NCBI GenBank assembly: GCA_046293555.1
Contig: JBKBOT010000001.1
Location: 44,185-71,170, forward strand
Direction of reading: 5' to 3'
From: Pyrobaculum sp.
Lineage (GTDB): Archaea > Thermoproteota > Thermoprotei > Thermoproteales > Thermoproteaceae
Length of the DNA stretch: 26,986 nucleotides
In this document: positions 1,925-16,727 of the stretch, in pieces
Position numbering within the stretch: the stretch's first letter is position 1
Layout: each line of letters begins with the position of its first letter
Position numbers and translations under genes: made by a program
The notes under the pieces: generated by a model
Told to the model about the DNA's origin: nothing
Seen by the model: only the letters and a program-made list of their open reading frames with translations
Database searches by the model: none

Positions 1925-3061
1925 GTGAGTTGTGTTAAAGTTGAGGGGAGGGCCTATGTGGGGACATTTAGGAGAGTCAAGATCGGGGGGGAGGGCTGTA
2001 GGGCTATCCAGCTCTCTAACGACTACCTAATCCTCCCCGGGATGGTGGATATCCATGTACATTTTAGGGACTGGGGGCTAGCCCACAAGGAGACGTTGGC
2101 GGGGGGCTCCGCCTCCGCTCTAGCGGGCGGCGTTGTGGCTGTAGGCGATATGCCGAACACAAGGCCCCACATAAGGACCGCCGAGCTGTATAGAAAGAGG
2201 CTTGAGGAGGGCAGCCGCCTCCCGATTTTATACAGATTACATATGGGCGTGCCGGAGGACCTGAGCCACCTCGAGACGGCGAGACCCCCCTCTGTGAAGA
2301 TATATCCGGAAGATATAGAAAGCTACGGGTGGGGACATGTGGAGGCCTTATTGAGGAAATGTGTGGAGCTTAGATGCATAGCTGTTTTCCACTGCGAGGA
2401 TCCTGCCCTGTTTAAAAACGGGGAGAGGCCACAGGAGGCTGAGGCATCGTGTGTAGAAAAGGTGAGGCTCTTGGCGAAAAAGACGGGGGCCCGGATACAT
2501 TTAACACACATAACTCTGCCATATGTCGCAGAGGCGTCTAGAGGGTGGGCCACAGTAGACGTAACGCCTCACCACCTCTATCTAGACGTAGAAAACTGTA
2601 GAGAGAAGGGCCTGTGTCTAGTAAACCCGCGGCTTAGAACTCCAGAGGTGAGAAGGGGGCTTCTGGCGGCGTTGGCCTCCGGCCTTGTGGACATATACGC
2701 CACAGACCACGCCCCCCACACTCTAGAAGAAAAGACGTCGGAGACGCCCCCGCCGGGGGTCTGTAGCCTTGAGGCCGCCTTAGGCCTTCTGTTGTCTCTA
2801 TGGAGGAGGGGAGTCATAACGCTACAAGACGTGGTGAGGCTTTATTCCAAAAGGCCGGCGTCTCTCCTCGGCGTGGATATAGACATGGGGAAAGAGTTTG
2901 CCATCGTGAAGCTAGAGGAGTGGACAGTAAGAGGGTCTGAGTTTGTGGGTAGCTGCAAGTTTACCCCACTTGAGGGACGGAAGGCGTTTGGCAGAGTTGT
3001 GGCCACGGCGGTGGGAGGCCGGCTTTATTTTAAAGACGGCGAGGTGTATTATCTAGACTAG
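1925..3061 (+). CDS. pyrC: Dihydroorotase
   Basis: PGMVDIHVHFRD, GDMPNT, FHCED, VTPHHL, VNPRLR and ATDHAPH amidohydrolase/DHOase motifs. Confidence 0.9.
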   Translation: MSCVKVEGRAYVGTFRRVKIGGEGCRAIQLSNDYLILPGMVDIHVHFRDWGLAHKETLAGGSASALAGGVVAVGDMPNTRPHIRTAELYRKRLEEGSRLPILYRLHMGVPEDLSHLETARPPSVKIYPEDIESYGWGHVEALLRKCVELRCIAVFHCEDPALFKNGERPQEAEASCVEKVRLLAKKTGARIHLTHITLPYVAEASRGWATVDVTPHHLYLDVENCREKGLCLVNPRLRTPEVRRGLLAALASGLVDIYATDHAPHTLEEKTSETPPPGVCSLEAALGLLLSLWRRGVITLQDVVRLYSKRPASLLGVDIDMGKEFAIVKLEEWTVRGSEFVGSCKFTPLEGRKAFGRVVATAVGGRLYFKDGEVYYLD

Positions 3062-3169
3062 CTTTTATTTCACATAGTCTTGTGGAACAAAGGGGCTATT
3101 TATATGGACGTTGGGAAAAATGTCGTTGTTTATACATAAGATTTAAATCTGTATGATAATTTATAGTAC

Positions 3170-3748
3170 ATGAGCCAGAAGAAAGACCGAATTAACATAG
3201 CGGTGGCGCGGGAAATCACGGAAAACCTGGCGAGGACTGCAGAGGAGCTGGGCATGACGCAATACGCTCTTGCGAACCAAATACTTGGCGTAGGCCTTGA
3301 GCTGATCCAACAGGGCTATAGCATCACGCAGATTCGCGACATTGCGCTCTTCTACAAGGTTATGGTTGAGCTCGAGACAGTCCCCATCCCCGGCAGGCTT
3401 TTAGACAAACTCGTTGTGGATATGTTTAAAGAAAAGCCGGAAGCCGTCCTAAAGGCGTGGTGCGACGGCGGGAAGATGTTAGCTAGCTACATAAAGGCGG
3501 TATTTGGAGAACTAGAAGGCGCGGTGGGGCTTTCCCAATATATAGCAAAGGTGGTGCCGGCAAAACGGTTTGAAGTAGATATAGCCGACGGCGAGTTTAA
3601 ACTAGAGACCATCGGCGTTGGGTATAGCATTGAGAGCGTAGAGGCCACAGCCAAGGCCGTCATATGTATGCTAGAGGAGCTGGGGTACGAGGTCAAGGAG
3701 ATAATAACTGCCCCCGGGATTTTGAAACTTAAGGCAGCGAGGCGTTAA
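3170..3748 (+). CDS. Hypothetical protein with probable N-terminal ribbon-helix-helix domain and V4R-like C-terminal domain
   Basis: RINIAV alternating strand followed by two helices (RHH-like). The C-terminal pattern W..GG...A.YI ... LEELGYEV.E.....GILKL resembles a V4R/H-NOX-like fold. TATA-like TTTAAAT at about 3142-3148. Confidence 0.6.
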   Translation: MSQKKDRINIAVAREITENLARTAEELGMTQYALANQILGVGLELIQQGYSITQIRDIALFYKVMVELETVPIPGRLLDKLVVDMFKEKPEAVLKAWCDGGKMLASYIKAVFGELEGAVGLSQYIAKVVPAKRFEVDIADGEFKLETIGVGYSIESVEATAKAVICMLEELGYEVKEIITAPGILKLKAARR

Positions 3749-5964
3749 TACACCTCCACGAAGTCTGTCGGCTTTGGAATCTCCTCTTTTAGTCCCTTCT
3801 TCTTTCTAAGCTGCTTGATGTAATCCAGCAGTATGGATTCCGGCATGGGGGCCCATCTTGAGAACTGCATGGACCAGAAGATCTTGCCTGCCGCAGCGGC
3901 GCGTAGCTCGTCGCTAATGTTAAACGACTCGAGAACTGGCAGCTCGGCCCTTAGATACGCCATGTATTCCTGTTGTATCATGTCGAGAATCTTGCCTCTA
4001 TGTTTGTTCAACACAGAGGTCACCGCGCCGATGTAGTCGGGGGCCACCTTTATGTCGAGTTTCATCAAGGGCTCTAGAAGCGTAGGCCTTGCAGAGAGAA
4101 ATGCCGCAAATATGGCGTTTTTTGTGGCGGGCATTATCTGCGCGGGGCCGCGGTGTGCCGGATCCTCGTGTACCACCGCGTCTACTAACACCACCTTTAC
4201 CCCCCTGAGCGGCTCTTGCGCCAACGGCCCAGCCTCTGTGGCCCACCTAAAGCCCTGGATTATGTAGTCTCTAATCTCCCTGAGGTACTGAATGCCGGAG
4301 GTCTTGTCCACAATTATGTTGAAATACCTGTCGTCAATTGCCCACACGCCCCTCGCCTCGTCTGTATCCCACCCCGCCTTTTCCCTCAATAGCTTCGCCC
4401 TCTCTCTGGGCTCCTGCTCCTCTGTAATTTCCTTAAGCGCTATAAGCTCTACAGTCGTCTCGTCGAGAGGCTCCACGTAGAAATACAGCCGGTTGTGTTT
4501 ATTAGGCGACTTGCCTTCCCACGTCTGCGACCTCTCTCTCACAGTCTCTCTAAATCTTATCAACGGCGGGGATACCGTAAACTCTGTCTTAGTCCTCTCC
4601 TTTAGAAGCCACGTGGCTATCTCCAGGTGGAGTGTACCCACGCCGGAGAGGAGTATCTGCCCCGTCTCCTGGTCTATCTTGAGGTCTAGCGTGGGGTCTT
4701 CAATCACCAGGTCTTTCAACGCCTCCACCAGTCGCGCCAACTCTGCCGGGTTTTTAGGCTCTATTGCCACAGTCACCACAGGCTCGGAGATGTAGCGCAT
4801 TTTTTCAAACGGCGGTATGTCAGAAAGCATGGGGCTAACCAACGTGTCGCCCGCCCTAGCCTCGTCTACGCCCATTAACGCCACGATGTTGCCAGCTGGC
4901 ATATACGGCACGATAATCCTGCTGGGTCCCATGTATATATATGTCTGCAGAACTCTCTTCTTTATCTTCCTCCCTATTATATACAGCTCGTCTCCCTCCC
5001 TCACGGTGCCTGAAAACACCCTGCCGGTGGCTATCAGCCCGGCGTGTGGATCTTTGTTCACCTTACTTACGGCAATTACGGCGGGGGCGTTGGGATCTGC
5101 CTCTAGGAGGGCCTTGCCAATTTCGCCGTCGAGATCTCCACGCCACAACCTGGGGATTCTATACCGCTGGGCCACGTTGGGAGGCGGCACATGTTCAATA
5201 ATCATAGACAGAATGGTTTTATACAGCTGAAACTCCTGCGCCAGTTGGTCTACATACCCCCTCTCATATGCGTCAACAATATTGCTAAACTTTACGCCAG
5301 CTTTCTGCGCCAGGGGGATGGTGATACCCCACTTATGGAGCGCAGAGCCCATAGCCATCTGGCCTTTGGCGGGGTCTATTTTCCACCTGTCTCTAAACTC
5401 CGGCGGTGCGAACATGTCGATCAGCGCGTTGAAGTCCTTCACGATGTTTAAAATCCGCTGTTGTATCTCCTGTGGCGACAGTCTGAGCTCCTTGATGAGA
5501 CGGTCGATCTTGTTTATAAATAAGACAGGCCTTACGTACTCCTCAAGCGCCTGTCTAACCACAGTCTCCGTCTGGGTCATCACGCCCTCTACCGCATCTA
5601 CTACCACCAAGCCGCCGTCCATAACTCTTAACGACCTGGTGACATGGCCTGTGAAATCCACATGCCCCGGCGTGTCCACAAAGTTTACGAGATAGGGCTT
5701 CCCGCTGTACTCAAAATACAGCGAGATGTTAGCAGCCTTTACAGTCATTTGTCTCAACTGTTCGATAGGGACGTAGTCCATAGCCAACGCCTTGCCGGCA
5801 ACTTTAGGCGAAAGCAGCCCGGCGCCCATAAGCAACGAGTCGCTGGTGGTAGTCTTGCCGTGATCTACGTGAGCCAACGTGCCGGCGTTTCGTATCTGCG
5901 CCGGGTTTTTGGCAATAGCCAAGATCTCGTCTAGCTGTTTCTCCACTATTCTGACTGAAGACAT
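3745..5964 (-). CDS. fusA: Translation elongation factor aEF-2
   Basis: AHVDHGKTT, DTPGHVDF and NKID GTPase motifs. HEDPAHRG diphthamide loop. 739 aa. Confidence 0.98.
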   Translation of the reverse strand: MSSVRIVEKQLDEILAIAKNPAQIRNAGTLAHVDHGKTTTSDSLLMGAGLLSPKVAGKALAMDYVPIEQLRQMTVKAANISLYFEYSGKPYLVNFVDTPGHVDFTGHVTRSLRVMDGGLVVVDAVEGVMTQTETVVRQALEEYVRPVLFINKIDRLIKELRLSPQEIQQRILNIVKDFNALIDMFAPPEFRDRWKIDPAKGQMAMGSALHKWGITIPLAQKAGVKFSNIVDAYERGYVDQLAQEFQLYKTILSMIIEHVPPPNVAQRYRIPRLWRGDLDGEIGKALLEADPNAPAVIAVSKVNKDPHAGLIATGRVFSGTVREGDELYIIGRKIKKRVLQTYIYMGPSRIIVPYMPAGNIVALMGVDEARAGDTLVSPMLSDIPPFEKMRYISEPVVTVAIEPKNPAELARLVEALKDLVIEDPTLDLKIDQETGQILLSGVGTLHLEIATWLLKERTKTEFTVSPPLIRFRETVRERSQTWEGKSPNKHNRLYFYVEPLDETTVELIALKEITEEQEPRERAKLLREKAGWDTDEARGVWAIDDRYFNIIVDKTSGIQYLREIRDYIIQGFRWATEAGPLAQEPLRGVKVVLVDAVVHEDPAHRGPAQIMPATKNAIFAAFLSARPTLLEPLMKLDIKVAPDYIGAVTSVLNKHRGKILDMIQQEYMAYLRAELPVLESFNISDELRAAAAGKIFWSMQFSRWAPMPESILLDYIKQLRKKKGLKEEIPKPTDFVEVY

Positions 5965-6586: not shown

Positions 6587-7572
6587 AACCCTCTAGTCTG
6601 TAATAACTCTTCCGGCTTGAGGGTCCTCACGTCTATTCCCATCATGGCGCCCTTCTCGCTAACCATACGTTGGGCCTCCACAACGGCCTCGGGATCGTCC
6701 CAATGGGCGGTGGCGTAGACAATCGCCTTGGCTCTCTCCAACGGGTCTTGGCTCTTAAATATGCCAGAGCCTACAAACACGCCGTCGGCGCCAAGCCACA
6801 TCATCAAGGCAGCGTCGGCAGGGGTGGCTATCCCCCCAGCCGCAAAGGTCACCACCGGCAGCCTCCCCAGCTTTGCCGTCAACGCCACTAGCTCTGGGGG
6901 CACTTGACACTGTCTCGAGAAGTCTCTTACCCTCTCCTCATCTCTCGTGAGTGAACGTATGGCGCCCATAATGGATTTGAAGTGTTTTACGGCCTCAGCC
7001 ACGTTGCCCGTACCCGCCTCGCCTTTAGATCTAATCATGGCGGCGCCTTCTGTAATCCTCCGCAGGGCCTCACAGAGCTCTCTGGCGCCGTTTACAAAAG
7101 GCACGTCGAAAAGCCACTTGTTTATATGGTGTTGTTCGTCTACTGGCGTTAACACTTCAGACTCGTCAATTAGGTCCACCCCTATGGACTCCAGAAGAAA
7201 GGCCTCGTAGTAGTGGCCAATTCTCACCTTAGCCGAGACGGGGATGGTGATATGCGCCATGATCTCCTCGACGACCTTTATGTCTGCAGTTCTCGCCACG
7301 CCCCCAGCCTTCCTCACGTCGTAGGGCAGTTTGTCCAGCACCATAACTCCCACAGCCCCCGCCTCCTCAGCTATCTGCGCCTGTTCCACATTAGTTACGT
7401 CCATTATGACGCCGTGTTTCAACATGGCGGGAAAGCCGTATTTTACAGAAAGCGGGGCGGCCCCCCCACCCCACTTGAGGCCGCCTTCCCTAAGCCTATC
7501 TCTAATCTCCAGCAGGTCATAAAATAAAGACCTCAACCTTTCTAACACCTCCAGCGAGTTGACAATCGACAT
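6583..7572 (-). CDS. pdxS: Pyridoxal 5'-phosphate synthase lyase subunit
   Basis: [41 protein letters not shown] and GVFVGSGIF motifs. Confidence 0.97.
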
Positions 7573-13099: not shown

Positions 13100-13606
13100 A
13101 TGGAGGGAGTTGAGGTGTTGTATAGAGCGTGGCTCGGCCGCCTTTATGCACAATATCTAATTCATGGGGTGAAAGAAGTGACCATTATATACGACGAAAC
13201 TCCCAGCTGTGTGGCCATAGCAGCCTCTGTAGCCGCCTTGGCAGAAGACAGAGTTCTAGCTGCAGTGAAGTCTGGAGAAATAAGAGAAGAAGTGGACAAC
13301 GCCCTTTTGATAATGAACCCACAGGTGGAGAGACTGGGGGAAAGGGCTGCCGCCGTGTTGAAAAAAGTGCGGAGGTTTGTTGCGTTACACACGCCTGTCT
13401 TCTACGCGCTTGACGAGGTGAAAGACGTCTCCGCCCTGTTGGAGGGGAAAGAGGTTAGATTCGCCGTGAGGGAAACCCCCTGGGAGGTCACCTTTTATAA
13501 GGTAGTGGCGTCTAGAGACGGCTTGAAGACAGAGCCATATGCCGCAAAGACTTTAACTCCTGGCGAAGTTGAGTTAATTAGGAAATTTGAAATTTTGAAG
13601 GCATGA
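13100..13606 (+). CDS. Hypothetical protein coupled to purE
   Basis: 168-aa ORF with a TATA (TATATATA, 13073-13080) upstream and an ATGA overlap with purE. No family recognised. Confidence 0.7.
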
Positions 13607-14082
13607 GGGTGGCCGTAATAATGGGGTCTATAAACGACCTGGAGGTTATGAAGGAGGCTTTGGAGGTTTTAGAGGCCTTGGGGATACCATATGAGGCTAG
13701 AGTGGTAAGCGCACACAGAACGCCGGATTTTATGTATCAATTTGCTAGAGAGGCTGAGGAGAAGTTCGACGTGATTATTGCCGGTGCTGGCGGCGCAGCT
13801 CACCTCCCCGGAATGACGGCTGCGTTAACCCCACTGCCAGTGGTGGGGGTGCCGATCCCCACTAAACACCTCGGCGGTTTAGACTCCTTGTTGTCCATCG
13901 TCCAAATGCCGAGAGGCACCCCGGTGGCCACTGTGGCTATTGGAAATGCCGCCAACGCCGCCTATCTGGCCGCCAGGATGCTAGGCGTCAAGTATCCAGA
14001 GGCTAGAGAGAGGGTGAGGCGACATATGGCTGAGATGCGGGAGGAAGTCTTGTCAAAATCATTTATAAAGTCATTTATATAA
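13603..14082 (+). CDS. purE: N5-CAIR mutase
   Basis: [22 protein letters not shown] and [14 protein letters not shown] motifs. Confidence 0.97.
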
Positions 14083-14103
14083 ATCCACCTTTCTCTCTAT
14101 ATT

Positions 14104-14418
14104 GTGAGGTTAAAATGCCCAATCTGCGGCGTTGATATAAATATAGAGCTTTCCCGGCGCCCCAACGCCGCGGGGGGGTTGGCGGAAGTTATTATAATCC
14201 ACAGGGGGCATTGCTTCAAGATTTATCTTGACGACACAAATTTCGTCAGGAGGGTCTCGCCAGCCTTCTGTACGCATGTAGACGAGCTGGCGGCATATAT
14301 CAACAGCGATACGGCTGTAGTGATAGAGAGGGGGGAGGTTGTAGAAATTCCTGGCCATTATGTAAGAGACGTGGTGGAGATGGAACTTAACCTGAAGAAA
14401 TGGGGTACCAGGAGATAA
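14104..14418 (+). CDS. Small putative Zn-binding protein (CPIC...HxxH)
   Basis: CPICG and HRGHC motifs. TATA box TTTATATAAAT at about 14074-14084. 19-nt overlap with the next gene. Confidence 0.65.
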   Translation: MRLKCPICGVDINIELSRRPNAAGGLAEVIIIHRGHCFKIYLDDTNFVRRVSPAFCTHVDELAAYINSDTAVVIERGEVVEIPGHYVRDVVEMELNLKKWGTRR

Positions 14419-14732
14419 TTCGCCAGGTTTTTGAAGACGTCAGAGACGTCGTGGGGGCCGCGTTGTTACATAAAAACGGCTTTGTGGTGGCCTACATCGG
14501 CCTAGAAAAGGAGACATGGGTCTATCTAACAGACGTGTTGAAAAACGTGCTAAAAGTCGCCGAATTTCTGGAGTCTGACCTATATGGCGTAGACGTCATG
14601 CTTGAAAACTATAAAGTAACTATTAGAAAGAGAGAGAATCTAATAGCTACAGTGGTCACCACGCCGGATACAGATAACCACATTTCTGACTACGTCGCCT
14701 TTAGGCTGCTAGAAGAGGCGCTCAAATTATGA
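14400..14732 (+). CDS. Roadblock/LC7-like (profilin-like fold) protein
   Basis: VVGAALLHKNGFVVA hairpin, a helix, then a three-strand end. 110 aa. Divergent relative to the neighbouring Roadblock gene. Confidence 0.65.
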   Translation: MGYQEIIRQVFEDVRDVVGAALLHKNGFVVAYIGLEKETWVYLTDVLKNVLKVAEFLESDLYGVDVMLENYKVTIRKRENLIATVVTTPDTDNHISDYVAFRLLEEALKL

Positions 14733-14766
14733 GATACACATAAAAAATATTACACATAATTACTAC

Positions 14767-15123
14767 ATGGAGGAAAAATTAAGAGGGGAGCTAAGCGTCT
14801 TTATTTCGAGAACTGGTGGTGATGTAAATGCCGCCTTGTTGGTACGTAAAGACGGCCTCCCGGTGGCCGCCATAGCGCCTGGGGCAGATGTAAAGCTTAT
14901 TTCAGCCATCTCGGCCTTGGCTATGGGCGCGTTACGTAGGGTGGGAGAGGAGTTAAAAAGCGGCGCCTTTAAGATGTCCATAATTAGCTACGAGTCACGT
15001 AACTTGTTGATATATCCGGTGCGGGATATCTACATAGTCTCCCTAATGTCGCCAGAGGCAAATCTCGGCCTTGTGTTACTAGAGGTGGAAAAACTAGCCC
15101 GCAGGCTACAGGAGATATTATGA
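14767..15123 (+). CDS. Roadblock/LC7 (MglB-like) protein
   Basis: AALLVRKDGLPVA, ISAISA...EELKSG and ANLGLVLLEV are typical MglB/Roadblock signatures. Confidence 0.88.
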   Translation: MEEKLRGELSVFISRTGGDVNAALLVRKDGLPVAAIAPGADVKLISAISALAMGALRRVGEELKSGAFKMSIISYESRNLLIYPVRDIYIVSLMSPEANLGLVLLEVEKLARRLQEIL

Positions 15124-15578
15124 TACAACTTCTGTCGCTCTTAAAAAAGCTGCTTAAAGGCGACATCCATATCGACGTGGACGAGGGGGTATTTACATAT
15201 AAGGGAGTTCGGGTGGTAACAATCCCCGTCCCCGCCGTAGTGCTCACAGCGCTAGAGGTGGCCAACATGTTCGGCGACGCCGGGCCCATACTTTTAGAGC
15301 GTCTGGGGGAGGGCGTAGGCGCCTCCATAAAAGAAACTATGGGGTGGGCCAGCGGCGAAGAGACGTTAAAAGAGTTTCCAAATATCGCAAGAGCTGGGGG
15401 CTTTGGGAAGGTATGGGTAAAAGAAAACCACTTAGTAATGGAAAACCTGCCCGTGTCGCTAGAGGATAACGTCTTGTTGGCATATATGAGGGGCTTCCTC
15501 CGCGGCCTCTGTATAGAGCTAGAGGATGTCCAAACTTCTGGCAACATCCTGCGGGCTAAGTTTAAAACAGTTTGTTAA
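15120..15578 (+). CDS. V4R / Bet3-like domain protein
   Basis: GVFTYKGVRVVTIP, ILLERLGEGVG, GGFGKV and YMRGFLRG match the V4R (XylR-N-like) pattern. ATGA overlap with the Roadblock gene. Confidence 0.7.
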   Translation: MIQLLSLLKKLLKGDIHIDVDEGVFTYKGVRVVTIPVPAVVLTALEVANMFGDAGPILLERLGEGVGASIKETMGWASGEETLKEFPNIARAGGFGKVWVKENHLVMENLPVSLEDNVLLAYMRGFLRGLCIELEDVQTSGNILRAKFKTVC

Positions 15579-15635
15579 ATCTCTAGGCGCTCTCCAGGAG
15601 GTCGTTATTAAATTTTTAAATGGACTTTTAATAAC

Positions 15636-16727
15636 GTGAGGCTGTTGACGTTAGGCGGGGGGCAGCTGGCGTTGATGTTATGTTGGGCGGCGAGACGTCT
15701 ATCTGTCATGTTTAGATTTGTAGATACACAAACTGCGCCGGCTAGCCACTGTGCCGAGGCTGCTGGCGACCCCTATACAGAGGTGGAAAGGTCAGATGTA
15801 ATCACATTTGAGTTTGAAAACGTAGACCTGGAGGTGGCTACATACGCCCATAAGTTGGGTAAACTTAGGCCACATCTAGAGTACCTCAAGATAAAGAAAA
15901 GCAGGATTTGGGAAAGAGAGCTCCTAAACTCTCTACGCGTGCCCACAATGTCGTGGAGGATGGCAGAGGGAGGGCTAGAGGCTTTAAAAATAGCCGAGAG
16001 GTGGGGAAAAGCCTTGGTGAAAATCCCGTCGGGGGGTTACGACGGGAAGGGGCAGTATGTATACCCTAGAGAGACTGGCGAGATAGAAAAGCTAGCTGGC
16101 ACATTGCTTGTAGAGGAATATGTAGATGTGAAGAGAGAGTTCTCTATTGTGGCGGCTAGAGGGGAAGACGGAGAGGCGTATTTCTACCCGCCGACACAGA
16201 ATTATTATGTAGACGGCATACTTGTGTGGAGTCTTGCCCCCACGAGTGTGCCAGTAGAGGCCTACGAGTATGTCTACAAGATACTAGAGTGGAGGAAATA
16301 TGTGGGGGTTATCGCCGTGGAGTTTTTTGAAAGCCGCGACGGGAGGCTGTTAGTAAACGAGATCGCCCCCAGAGTTCACAACACGGGCCACTGGACGCTA
16401 GAGACCGACGCCAGCCAGTTTGAAAACCACGTGAGGGCCGTAATGGGGCTTCCCATAAAGATGCCAAGAGCCATAAAGCCCACGGCTATGGTGAACATAC
16501 TCGGCAAGCCTCTCGACGGGCTCCCTCTGCGAGAACTGGAGAGGCTGGGGAAGGTGTATTGGTACCGCAAGGCCGAGGCCAGGCCTAGAAGGAAGATGGG
16601 TCATCTCAACATAGTGGGCGAGAGGCTAGAAGAAACAGCTGAAAGAGCCAGAAGGGCGTTACAGCTGATATACGGCAGGGAGTTCCCACAGCTAGTCATG
16701 AGGCCGCGGCCAATGCCGCAGTTATAA
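15636..16727 (+). CDS. purK: N5-CAIR synthetase (ATP-grasp)
   Basis: LGGGQLA, TFEFENV, GGYDGKGQ, NEIAPRVHNTGH, SQFENH and RRKMGH motifs. Confidence 0.96.
   Translation: MRLLTLGGGQLALMLCWAARRLSVMFRFVDTQTAPASHCAEAAGDPYTEVERSDVITFEFENVDLEVATYAHKLGKLRPHLEYLKIKKSRIWERELLNSLRVPTMSWRMAEGGLEALKIAERWGKALVKIPSGGYDGKGQYVYPRETGEIEKLAGTLLVEEYVDVKREFSIVAARGEDGEAYFYPPTQNYYVDGILVWSLAPTSVPVEAYEYVYKILEWRKYVGVIAVEFFESRDGRLLVNEIAPRVHNTGHWTLETDASQFENHVRAVMGLPIKMPRAIKPTAMVNILGKPLDGLPLRELERLGKVYWYRKAEARPRRKMGHLNIVGERLEETAERARRALQLIYGREFPQLVMRPRPMPQL

Follow-up and report, generated by a model that had tools for sequence, protein, structure and literature searches.

A cassette of four short genes, here called O1 to O4, lies between purE and purK in the window that was analysed, a stretch of 26,986 nt from a Pyrobaculum sp. 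genome (GCA_046293555.1, contig JBKBOT010000001.1, positions 44,185 to 71,170 of the forward strand; the genome is referred to as G000). We interpret the cassette as a Roadblock-based regulatory module with an unusual complement of a V4R-fold protein and a predicted zinc protein, with no linked GTPase, and present in few Pyrobaculum-type genomes, among which its genes have been gained, kept and lost together. The original prediction, made from the letters of the window, had described four co-oriented genes in two overlapping pairs, and the open reading frame (ORF) coordinates agree: O1 and O2 overlap by 19 nt (14400–14418), and O3 and O4 by 4 nt (ATGA at 15120). The genes and their borders are as follows.

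O1, 14104–14418, + strand: 104 aa, GTG start; zinc-binding-type protein (CPxC...HxxH), as predicted
O2, 14400–14732, + strand: 110 aa; divergent Roadblock/LC7-fold protein, as modelled
O3, 14767–15123, + strand: 118 aa; canonical Roadblock/LC7 protein, by sequence
O4, 15120–15578, + strand: 152 aa; stand-alone XylR_N+V4R / Bet3 / H-NOX-type fold, as modelled
purE, 13603–14082, + strand: left border, outside the module (PF00731 208.2 bits, TIGR01162 208.8 bits)
purK, 15636–16727, + strand: right border, outside the module (PF02222, PF17769, NF004679 at 316.5 bits)

Long antisense ORFs occur at the cassette both in the window and in a relative. Between G000 and its closest relative, G001, synonymous divergence (pS) is saturated (0.70–0.81), whereas non-synonymous divergence (pN) is 0.24 for O1 (with a pS of 0.70), 0.22 for O2, 0.09 for O3 and 0.20 for O4, the value for purK being 0.18. 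Low pN beside saturated pS indicates that the + strand frames are the selected ones and that these are real genes, and by this comparison all four are under purifying selection.

Folds and families of the four proteins

O3 passes the Pfam Roadblock model PF03259 (34.7 bits, cut-off 23) and also gives a weak match to MAPKK1_Int; its orthologues score 29.9–34.1 bits with the first model and up to 37.1 bits (G002) with the second. Run against the PDB sequences, the O3 profile reaches the Asgard Roadblock protein 9jue_D (2.5e-13), 7f8m_A (9.9e-12), LAMTOR3 (6.1e-7) and MglB (3e-3). Identity to the G001 orthologue is 87%. These profile matches identify O3 as a canonical Roadblock/LC7 protein. Judged on sequence, O2 is only a borderline relative of the Roadblock family, scoring below the PF03259 cut-off of 23 (13.2 bits, E 0.078), and an hhalign comparison of the O2 and O3 families gives E 3.4e-4 over 97 columns with a probability of 38%. 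The AlphaFold model of O2 (predicted local distance difference test score, pLDDT, 90.8) has the topology alpha-beta-beta-alpha-beta-beta-beta-alpha, and Foldseek returned 191 PDB matches to it at E<=1e-3, the best being 3kye (template modelling score, TM, 0.83; root-mean-square deviation 2.3). All of the 34 matches listed out of these 191 are Roadblock, MglB/MglC, LAMTOR/Ragulator-Rag-GATOR or dynein-complex entries, and further matches, each with a probability of 1.00, include 7yh1, 7f8m, the MglB structure 1j3w and LAMTOR chains. Given the Roadblock topology of the model and its fit to Roadblock, MglB and LAMTOR chains, O2 is, as modelled, a divergent Roadblock-fold protein. The claim that two of the four proteins are Roadblock proteins is thus upheld, for O3 by a score above the Pfam cut-off and for O2 by the model and its Foldseek matches together with the weak profile similarity to O3.

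A third Roadblock gene is present on contig C51 of G000 (L017:2050–2502, + strand); its product has 151 aa, scores 25.8 bits with Robl_LC7 and is 42% identical to O3. It is divergent from a gene for a 178-aa double-zinc-ribbon protein and adjoins CopD. No second O3-like match was found in the other genomes of the genus.

O4 had been named a V4R protein, and here the fold is borne out while the family signature is not. The Pfam V4R model PF02830 (cut-off 31 bits) has no match in O4, nor in the whole genome at E<=10. The structural model (pLDDT 87.2) nevertheless matches PoxR in Foldseek (5frz, E 1.2e-4, TM 0.60), with MopR, DmpR, Bet3 and MJ1460 also found, and VIA-align against 48,161 chains ranks BcsD (Z 9.8), PoxR (9.3), DmpR (9.2), MJ1460 (9.0) and Bet3 2cfh (8.3), with TRAPP 3cue at Z 8.1 and Thor TRAPPC3 7yh2 at Z 7.0; the highest-ranked chain with a fold other than these V4R/Bet3/H-NOX-like sensor folds is at Z 5.4. 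The alignment covers 139 of the 152 residues with PoxR and 135 with DmpR. By sequence, the O4 profile finds the V4R protein MJ1460 (E 0.0043), and a hidden Markov model (HMM) made from six O4 sequences reaches the V4R proteins of G044, a genome of a distant family, at 7.9e-9 and 1.6e-6 in a small database. With XylR_N (PF06505, cut-off 23 bits) the G016 and G002 orthologues score 25.3 and 19.9 bits; no match to this model was found in O4 itself, in the G013 or G009 orthologues or in an O4-like protein of G039. As modelled, then, O4 has a V4R/Bet3/H-NOX-type fold and reproduces the XylR_N+V4R sensor architecture as a protein on its own. Four cysteines are present in the bona fide V4R proteins of G044, and in an alignment with them O4 and its orthologues keep one of these four canonical residues, the last (C152, where O4 ends), and lack the other three; C131 is a conserved, family-specific cysteine of O4. 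A Zn site is reported for PoxR and for Thor TRAPPC3 (PMC10933270).

The genes starting at 14400 and 15120, for which Roadblock and V4R folds had been expected beforehand, accordingly model as a Roadblock (O2) and as a V4R/Bet3 fold (O4). Elsewhere in the cassette-bearing genome G002 there is an O4-like stretch with two stop codons (G002:C1:446840–447031).

For O1, an alignment of 11 relatives shows C5, P6, C8, E28, H33, H36, K39, D43, R49 and R50 to be invariant in 11/11. The ligand-type residues are spaced as C5-x2-C8 followed, 24 residues later, by H33-x2-H36, and this invariant Cys2-His2 set forms a predicted metal-site pattern. The zinc knuckle that had been proposed for O1 therefore keeps its conserved Cys2-His2 motif and loses its class: a CCHC-type zinc knuckle has the spacing CX2CX4HX4C, which C5-x2-C8...H33-x2-H36 does not fit, and that assignment is ruled out. 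O1 gave no Pfam or NCBIfam match above cut-off and is weakly similar to the zinc-ribbon protein LysW (5k2m_E, E 0.0012). The Atlas model is not a confident one (pLDDT 0.53), and an Atlas search with O1 returned no named family, every score being below 0.9. Against 1.84 billion representatives the O1 profile found 31 proteins at E<=1e-3 and 10 at E<=1e-10; matches beyond about E 1e-8 are generic zinc-motif proteins (Ig-repeat, C2H2) and were excluded from the family. So few matches in a set of that size mark the O1 family as tiny. No longer fused relative was found among proteins of 565–2000 aa, the sole size range searched.

The O1 family tree has four well-supported clades. Clade 1 holds the copies of G000, G001 and G011, and clade 2 those of G002, G013 and G016. 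Clade 3 is a 'solo' paralogue present in most genomes of the genus, which in the two loci annotated (G007 and G015) sits between a diphthamide-synthesis gene and HerA, and clade 4 is the N-terminal domain of a 316–322-aa protein of the sister genus g2. G002, which bears the cassette, also has a truncated O1 copy of 60 aa, which clusters with its cassette copy (G002:C1:1044803–1044970).

Linkage, distribution and insertion of the cassette

Linkage was surveyed in 41 genomes of the order, including G000, of which 18 belong to the genus. O4 was found in 8 of the 41, namely in 7/18 genomes of the genus and, as one distant O4-like gene, in G039; the same seven genomes of the genus (G000, G001, G002, G009, G011, G013 and G016) have O2 and O3 as well, all three genes being intact or almost intact. 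The genes thus stay linked and co-occur across relatives despite reordering, which is the outcome that had been looked for beforehand. The order O1-O2-O3-O4 between purE and purK is shared by G000 and G001, and G002 and G016 have O2-O1-O3-O4; G013 has O4-O2-O1, with O4 overlapping O2, and a convergent O3. In the draft genome G011, O3-O4 lie beside purK and O1-O2 16 kb off on the same contig, O2 and O4 both being split by frameshifts, and in G009 O3-O4 and O2 are on different contigs, O2 at a contig end. Of these genomes, 6/7 retain the ATGA overlap between O3 and O4, and the 19-nt O1-O2 overlap is retained in 3/3 genomes of the window's clade. The neighbourhoods of the cassette differ among the five loci that were annotated (MCM/Hel308, Nramp/PhoU-like, ankyrin/complex I). 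PhoU-domain genes adjoin O2 in two genomes, co-directionally with an 11-nt gap in G009 (L026:412–1035) and divergently in G002 (L010:10791–11642). One of the cassette bearers is a cultured strain, Pyrobaculum oguniense TE7 (locus L082).

The position of the cassette in G000 and G001, and that of its O3-O4 half beside purK in G011, would suit an accessory of purine synthesis, for instance a regulator of, or carrier for, the purE/purK step, and the weak zinc-ribbon similarity of O1 to the carrier LysW points the same way. LysW has an acidic tail; the C-terminus of O1, by contrast, is KKWGTRR and not acidic. The genes purE and purK are directly adjacent, 73–363 nt apart, in all five of the other genomes of the genus that were checked, three of which (G002, G016 and G013) carry the cassette elsewhere, as does G009, and 11/18 genomes of the genus are without it. 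From the adjacency of purE and purK elsewhere we conclude that the cassette is a unit inserted here, with no evident purine role. We rejected the purine-pathway explanation on this synteny and regard it as extremely improbable.

The cassette is also being lost. Broken O2 remnants occur in G007 and G026, and G007 has a decayed copy (L019:5003–5318 and 6925–7038) in which O2 is frameshifted, with 87–93% identity to the G016 O2, and only the last ~39 residues of O4 are recognizable, which implies that the module is dispensable. Unrelated minus-strand ORFs lie between the two remnants.

Such a patchy, mobile distribution could also be explained if the genes formed a small cassette of the conflict or defence type, or one selfish in some other way. 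Presence in only 7/18 genomes of the genus, insertion into a purE-purK spacer of 73–363 nt, the decayed copy in G007 and the stray fragments in G002 would all fit, and V4R domains have been proposed as ligand sensors of immune systems, according to a 2026 preprint (10.64898/2026.10.19.760177). Yet no PADLOC model was matched by O1–O4 at E<=0.1, no nuclease, protease, TIR, pore or other effector-type domain was detected in them with Pfam and NCBIfam, and no integrase or flanking repeats were seen, a search for flanking repeats or target-site duplications giving only short repeats at chance level. The purK-like non-synonymous divergence (pN 0.09–0.24 against 0.18 for purK) and the 87% identity of O3 between G000 and G001 moreover give no sign of fast arms-race change. 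We consider a conflict cassette very improbable.

Beyond the order, a phylum-level sample of 401 genomes was searched. With the O4 profile, close relatives were confined to this genus, and distant V4R-like genes turned up in 15 further genomes, of which G044 is the only one with an adjoining Roadblock gene. There a Roadblock gene is followed by two V4R genes in succession, and all three products exceed the Pfam cut-offs (Robl_LC7 49.1 bits; V4R 65.2 and 53.6 bits). In two g7 genomes Roadblock and V4R-like genes lie 14–16 kb apart. The Roadblock-V4R gene pair therefore recurs but is rare in this sample, and the statement that the combination is prominent in TACK archaea did not hold, a V4R-like gene standing beside a Roadblock gene only in this genus and in G044. 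Roadblock genes themselves are more widespread: the Pfam model found them in 92/401 genomes of the phylum, and the O3 search found more distant ones in 13/14 genomes of family f2. Within family f1 the six-frame search with the Pfam model found them only in cassette bearers (5/22 and the window's genome), but since it missed the Roadblock gene on C51, absences mean 'not found with this query'.

Tandem pairs of another kind, a Roadblock gene followed by a gene for a cysteine-rich protein of ~160 aa and of no known family, were seen in G037 (L028:194–2087) and G040 (L029:4602–6481). The ~160-aa proteins were considered as O4-like and rejected, the O4 HMM and hhalign giving no similarity.

Proposed role and candidate partners

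We propose that in a subset of Pyrobaculum-type archaea the four genes would make up a single regulatory module, self-contained and dispensable, which was probably inserted by chance between purE and purK in the window's lineage. The Roadblock proteins would form a dimeric platform, either as an O2-O3 heterodimer or as stacked homodimers; O4, translationally coupled to O3, may bind a small hydrophobic ligand or act as a scaffold, and O1, coupled to O2, may serve as a zinc-stabilized adaptor. The assembly would tune the nucleotide state or the location of a nucleoside triphosphatase (NTPase) encoded elsewhere, for which one of two Rup-type (Arf/Ras-like) small GTPases would be the first candidate. 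Roadblock and Bet3 families regulate GTPases (PMC10933270; PMC4316618), and it is by analogy with MglB, Ragulator and TRAPP, which act on their GTPases, that a Rup GTPase seems the likeliest target. We hold this reading, an accessory sensor/adaptor module whose target NTPase is encoded elsewhere and would in the first place be sought among the Rup GTPases, only tentatively, at somewhat short of an even chance.

The two GTPases in question were found with a search seeded from a g2 Rup-type gene. They are encoded at C6:39967–40440 and C1:103975–104436 of G000, and both have intact G1, G3 and G4 motifs (GxGGVGKTT, DVPGQ and GNKxD). By description, and not by tree placement, they fit the 'Group 2 Rup' GTPases of PMC4316618, which are described there as crenarchaeal, in up to six copies and without conserved neighbours. 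Crenarchaeal Rup GTPases have been proposed to be relatives of the Arf/Sar group, and have no known partner according to the same source. MglA is reported there to be without the conserved G3 aspartate, which the G000 small GTPases keep (DVPGQ).

The link between the cassette and a GTPase is indirect. In both g2 genomes the only Rup-type GTPase gene is followed directly by the gene for the O1-domain protein (G018, L022:2117–3620, with the 316-aa protein at 2117–3064; G020, L023:5600–6568). The first ~100 residues of this 316–322-aa protein are an O1-type CPxC...HxxH domain, and the rest matches no recognizable family. The C-terminal 215 aa gave nothing by hhalign against the O2 and O3 alignments and nothing in a PDB sequence search; phmmer connected this part to Roadblock ORFs only at E 0.25–0.45, and in an Atlas feature search a Robl_LC7-bearing cluster came at rank 13 (score 0.85).

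Several observations weigh against a role in GTPase regulation, or against the assembly that we propose. The original prediction was right that the window encodes no small GTPase, its sole GTPase being elongation factor EF-2 (3748–5964), and in the five annotated loci the cassette has no GTPase gene closer than ~6 kb; the nearest small GTPase gene of G000, that on C1, is 45 kb away. Rup-type GTPases are present in 24/24 family f1 genomes, cassette bearers and others alike, at 1 to 6 matches per genome, and the number of copies does not track the cassette. In PMC4316618, as far as its published counts go, 0/121 Rup GTPases are coupled to MglB homologues and the crenarchaeal group is without conserved neighbours. 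No clear Roadblock likeness emerged from hhalign, phmmer or PDB sequence search in the C-terminal part of the g2 fusion. Binding among O1–O4 is putative; the prediction of an O3+O4 complex, run without controls, scored 0.02 against a mark of 0.32 and counts neither for nor against such a complex. Lastly, the pocket-shaping cysteine cluster of PoxR-type V4R domains is missing from O4, which makes ligand binding uncertain.

Some of these points would be accommodated if the same linked module were unrelated to small GTPases, O4 sensing a small molecule and the Roadblock proteins relaying the signal to a KaiC-like or STAND ATPase or to a transcription factor. Neither linkage of the cassette to a GTPase gene nor a phyletic correlation was found, and the best full-length structural matches of O4 are to the effector-binding domains of the transcription activators PoxR and DmpR. 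A KaiC-like ATPase gene (615–1856; PF06745, 58.6 bits) is present within the window; however, it lies 12 kb upstream of the cassette, and there is none beside the cassette in the five annotated loci. Nor was a DNA-binding or ATPase domain detected in O1–O4 with Pfam and NCBIfam, and the Roadblock partners named in PMC10933270 and PMC4316618, in the portions of these papers available to us, are all NTPases and mostly small GTPases. A non-GTPase partner strikes us as rather unlikely, though the most probable of the rival explanations.

The accessory module with a Rup GTPase as its first candidate target can be set beside several known systems. Like the MglB-MglA modules of Myxococcus and Thermus, the cassette has small, stand-alone Roadblock/LC7-fold proteins in a compact operon, and the O2 model matches the MglB structures 1j3w, 3t12 and 6h5b, as the O3 profile reaches MglB by sequence. 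With the Streptomyces conservon CvnA-D it shares an arrangement of four genes around a Roadblock protein (PMC4316618). It differs from both in having no MglA-type or other GTPase and no kinase, inside or adjoining, and in having two Roadblock paralogues, a V4R-fold protein and a Cys2-His2 protein. The coupling of MglB to an MglA-GTPase gene is not seen in the five annotated neighbourhoods or in the window, and the small GTPases of G000 are of the Rup type, which PMC4316618 reports as never MglB-coupled. The Ragulator subunits LAMTOR2/LAMTOR3 (p14/MP1) are, like O2 and O3, two different Roadblock-fold proteins; the O2 model superposes on LAMTOR chains with TM 0.72–0.79, and O3 and its orthologues match MAPKK1_Int. 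Unlike Ragulator, the cassette is without a p18 anchor and without Rag GTPases, and an O2-O3 heterodimer is putative.

For O4 the nearest comparisons are the A domain of XylR, DmpR, PoxR and MopR (XylR_N + V4R) and MJ1460, with which its whole length aligns; unlike the former activators, O4 stands alone, with no AAA+ or helix-turn-helix output. TRAPP Bet3/TRAPPC3, including Asgard TRAPPC3, has the same fold, and O4 is likewise encoded with a platform-type partner, an arrangement reminiscent of GTPase regulators, but that partner is a Roadblock and not a longin protein, and O4 resembles bacterial sensor domains at least as closely as it does Bet3. In Asgard archaea, Roadblock and TRAPPC3 proteins assemble into dimers similar to the Ragulator and TRAPP ones, and in MK-D1 the GTPase genes are generally outside the operons of Roadblock, longin or TRAPPC3 genes (PMC10933270); going by this operon statement, a conserved Roadblock-V4R gene pair is not described in the part of that paper available to us. 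PMC2253512, which linked V4R to Bet3, makes no mention of Roadblock, operons or GTPases, and no description of the cassette was found in the full-text literature, supplements and the 2017 KaiC-hub paper being outside the scope of that search.

It is tempting to consider what an assembly of these proteins would mean. Were the Roadblock dimer, the Bet3-fold protein and the new zinc protein to form one complex that acts on the Arf-like Rup GTPases of Thermoproteaceae as a minimal ligand-gated GTPase-activating protein/guanine nucleotide exchange factor (GAP/GEF) platform, prokaryotes would have a module uniting the two platform folds that Ragulator and TRAPP came to use later, and this module would be the first to be recognized as a regulator of a Rup GTPase. 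We think so specific a function distinctly improbable. The cassette does provide a genetic tie between a Roadblock pair and a Bet3-fold protein. Should these proteins prove to bind one another as well as a GTPase, this pairing of regulator folds would predate eukaryotes and exist outside the Asgard archaea; otherwise the cassette would add to the signalling modules that are restricted to single lineages. Prokaryotes commonly have orphan Roadblock proteins: 328 uncoupled MglB homologues had been counted by 2014, with none characterized according to PMC4316618, and stand-alone V4R proteins have no clear function, as stated in PMC3791482. The cassette offers a compact, testable handle on orphan Roadblock proteins, V4R proteins and Rup GTPases alike.

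Putative signals and other features around the cassette

TATA-like boxes had been placed at about 14074–14084 and 14739–14751, with the suggestion of expression independent of purE and purK, and AT-rich stretches are indeed present at nearly these positions.

TATA-like element TTTATATAA, 14074–14082, + strand: over the purE stop codon, 22 nt 5' of the O1 GTG
AT-rich TATA-like stretch ATAAAAAATATTA, 14740–14752, + strand: in the 34-nt O2-O3 spacer, ~15–27 nt 5' of the O3 ATG

The TATATAA of the first element is kept at the same position in G001, and the AT-rich stretch 5' of O3 is present in G001 and absent in G016. Together, TTTATATAA and the second stretch would fit putative archaeal promoters of leaderless transcripts. 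Rfam gave no match at E<=0.1 over 13500–16000. A perfect 10-nt inverted repeat (CGTTATTAAA / TTTAATAACG, 14 nt apart) spans 15603–15636, ending on the first base of the purK GTG, and may form a hairpin with a regulatory or terminator-like role in the gap from O4 to purK. On the other side of the cassette, a 168-aa ORF of no known family (13100–13606) overlaps the purE start (ATGA); it is conserved beside purE in G001 (63% identity) and beside O3 in G011 (43%).

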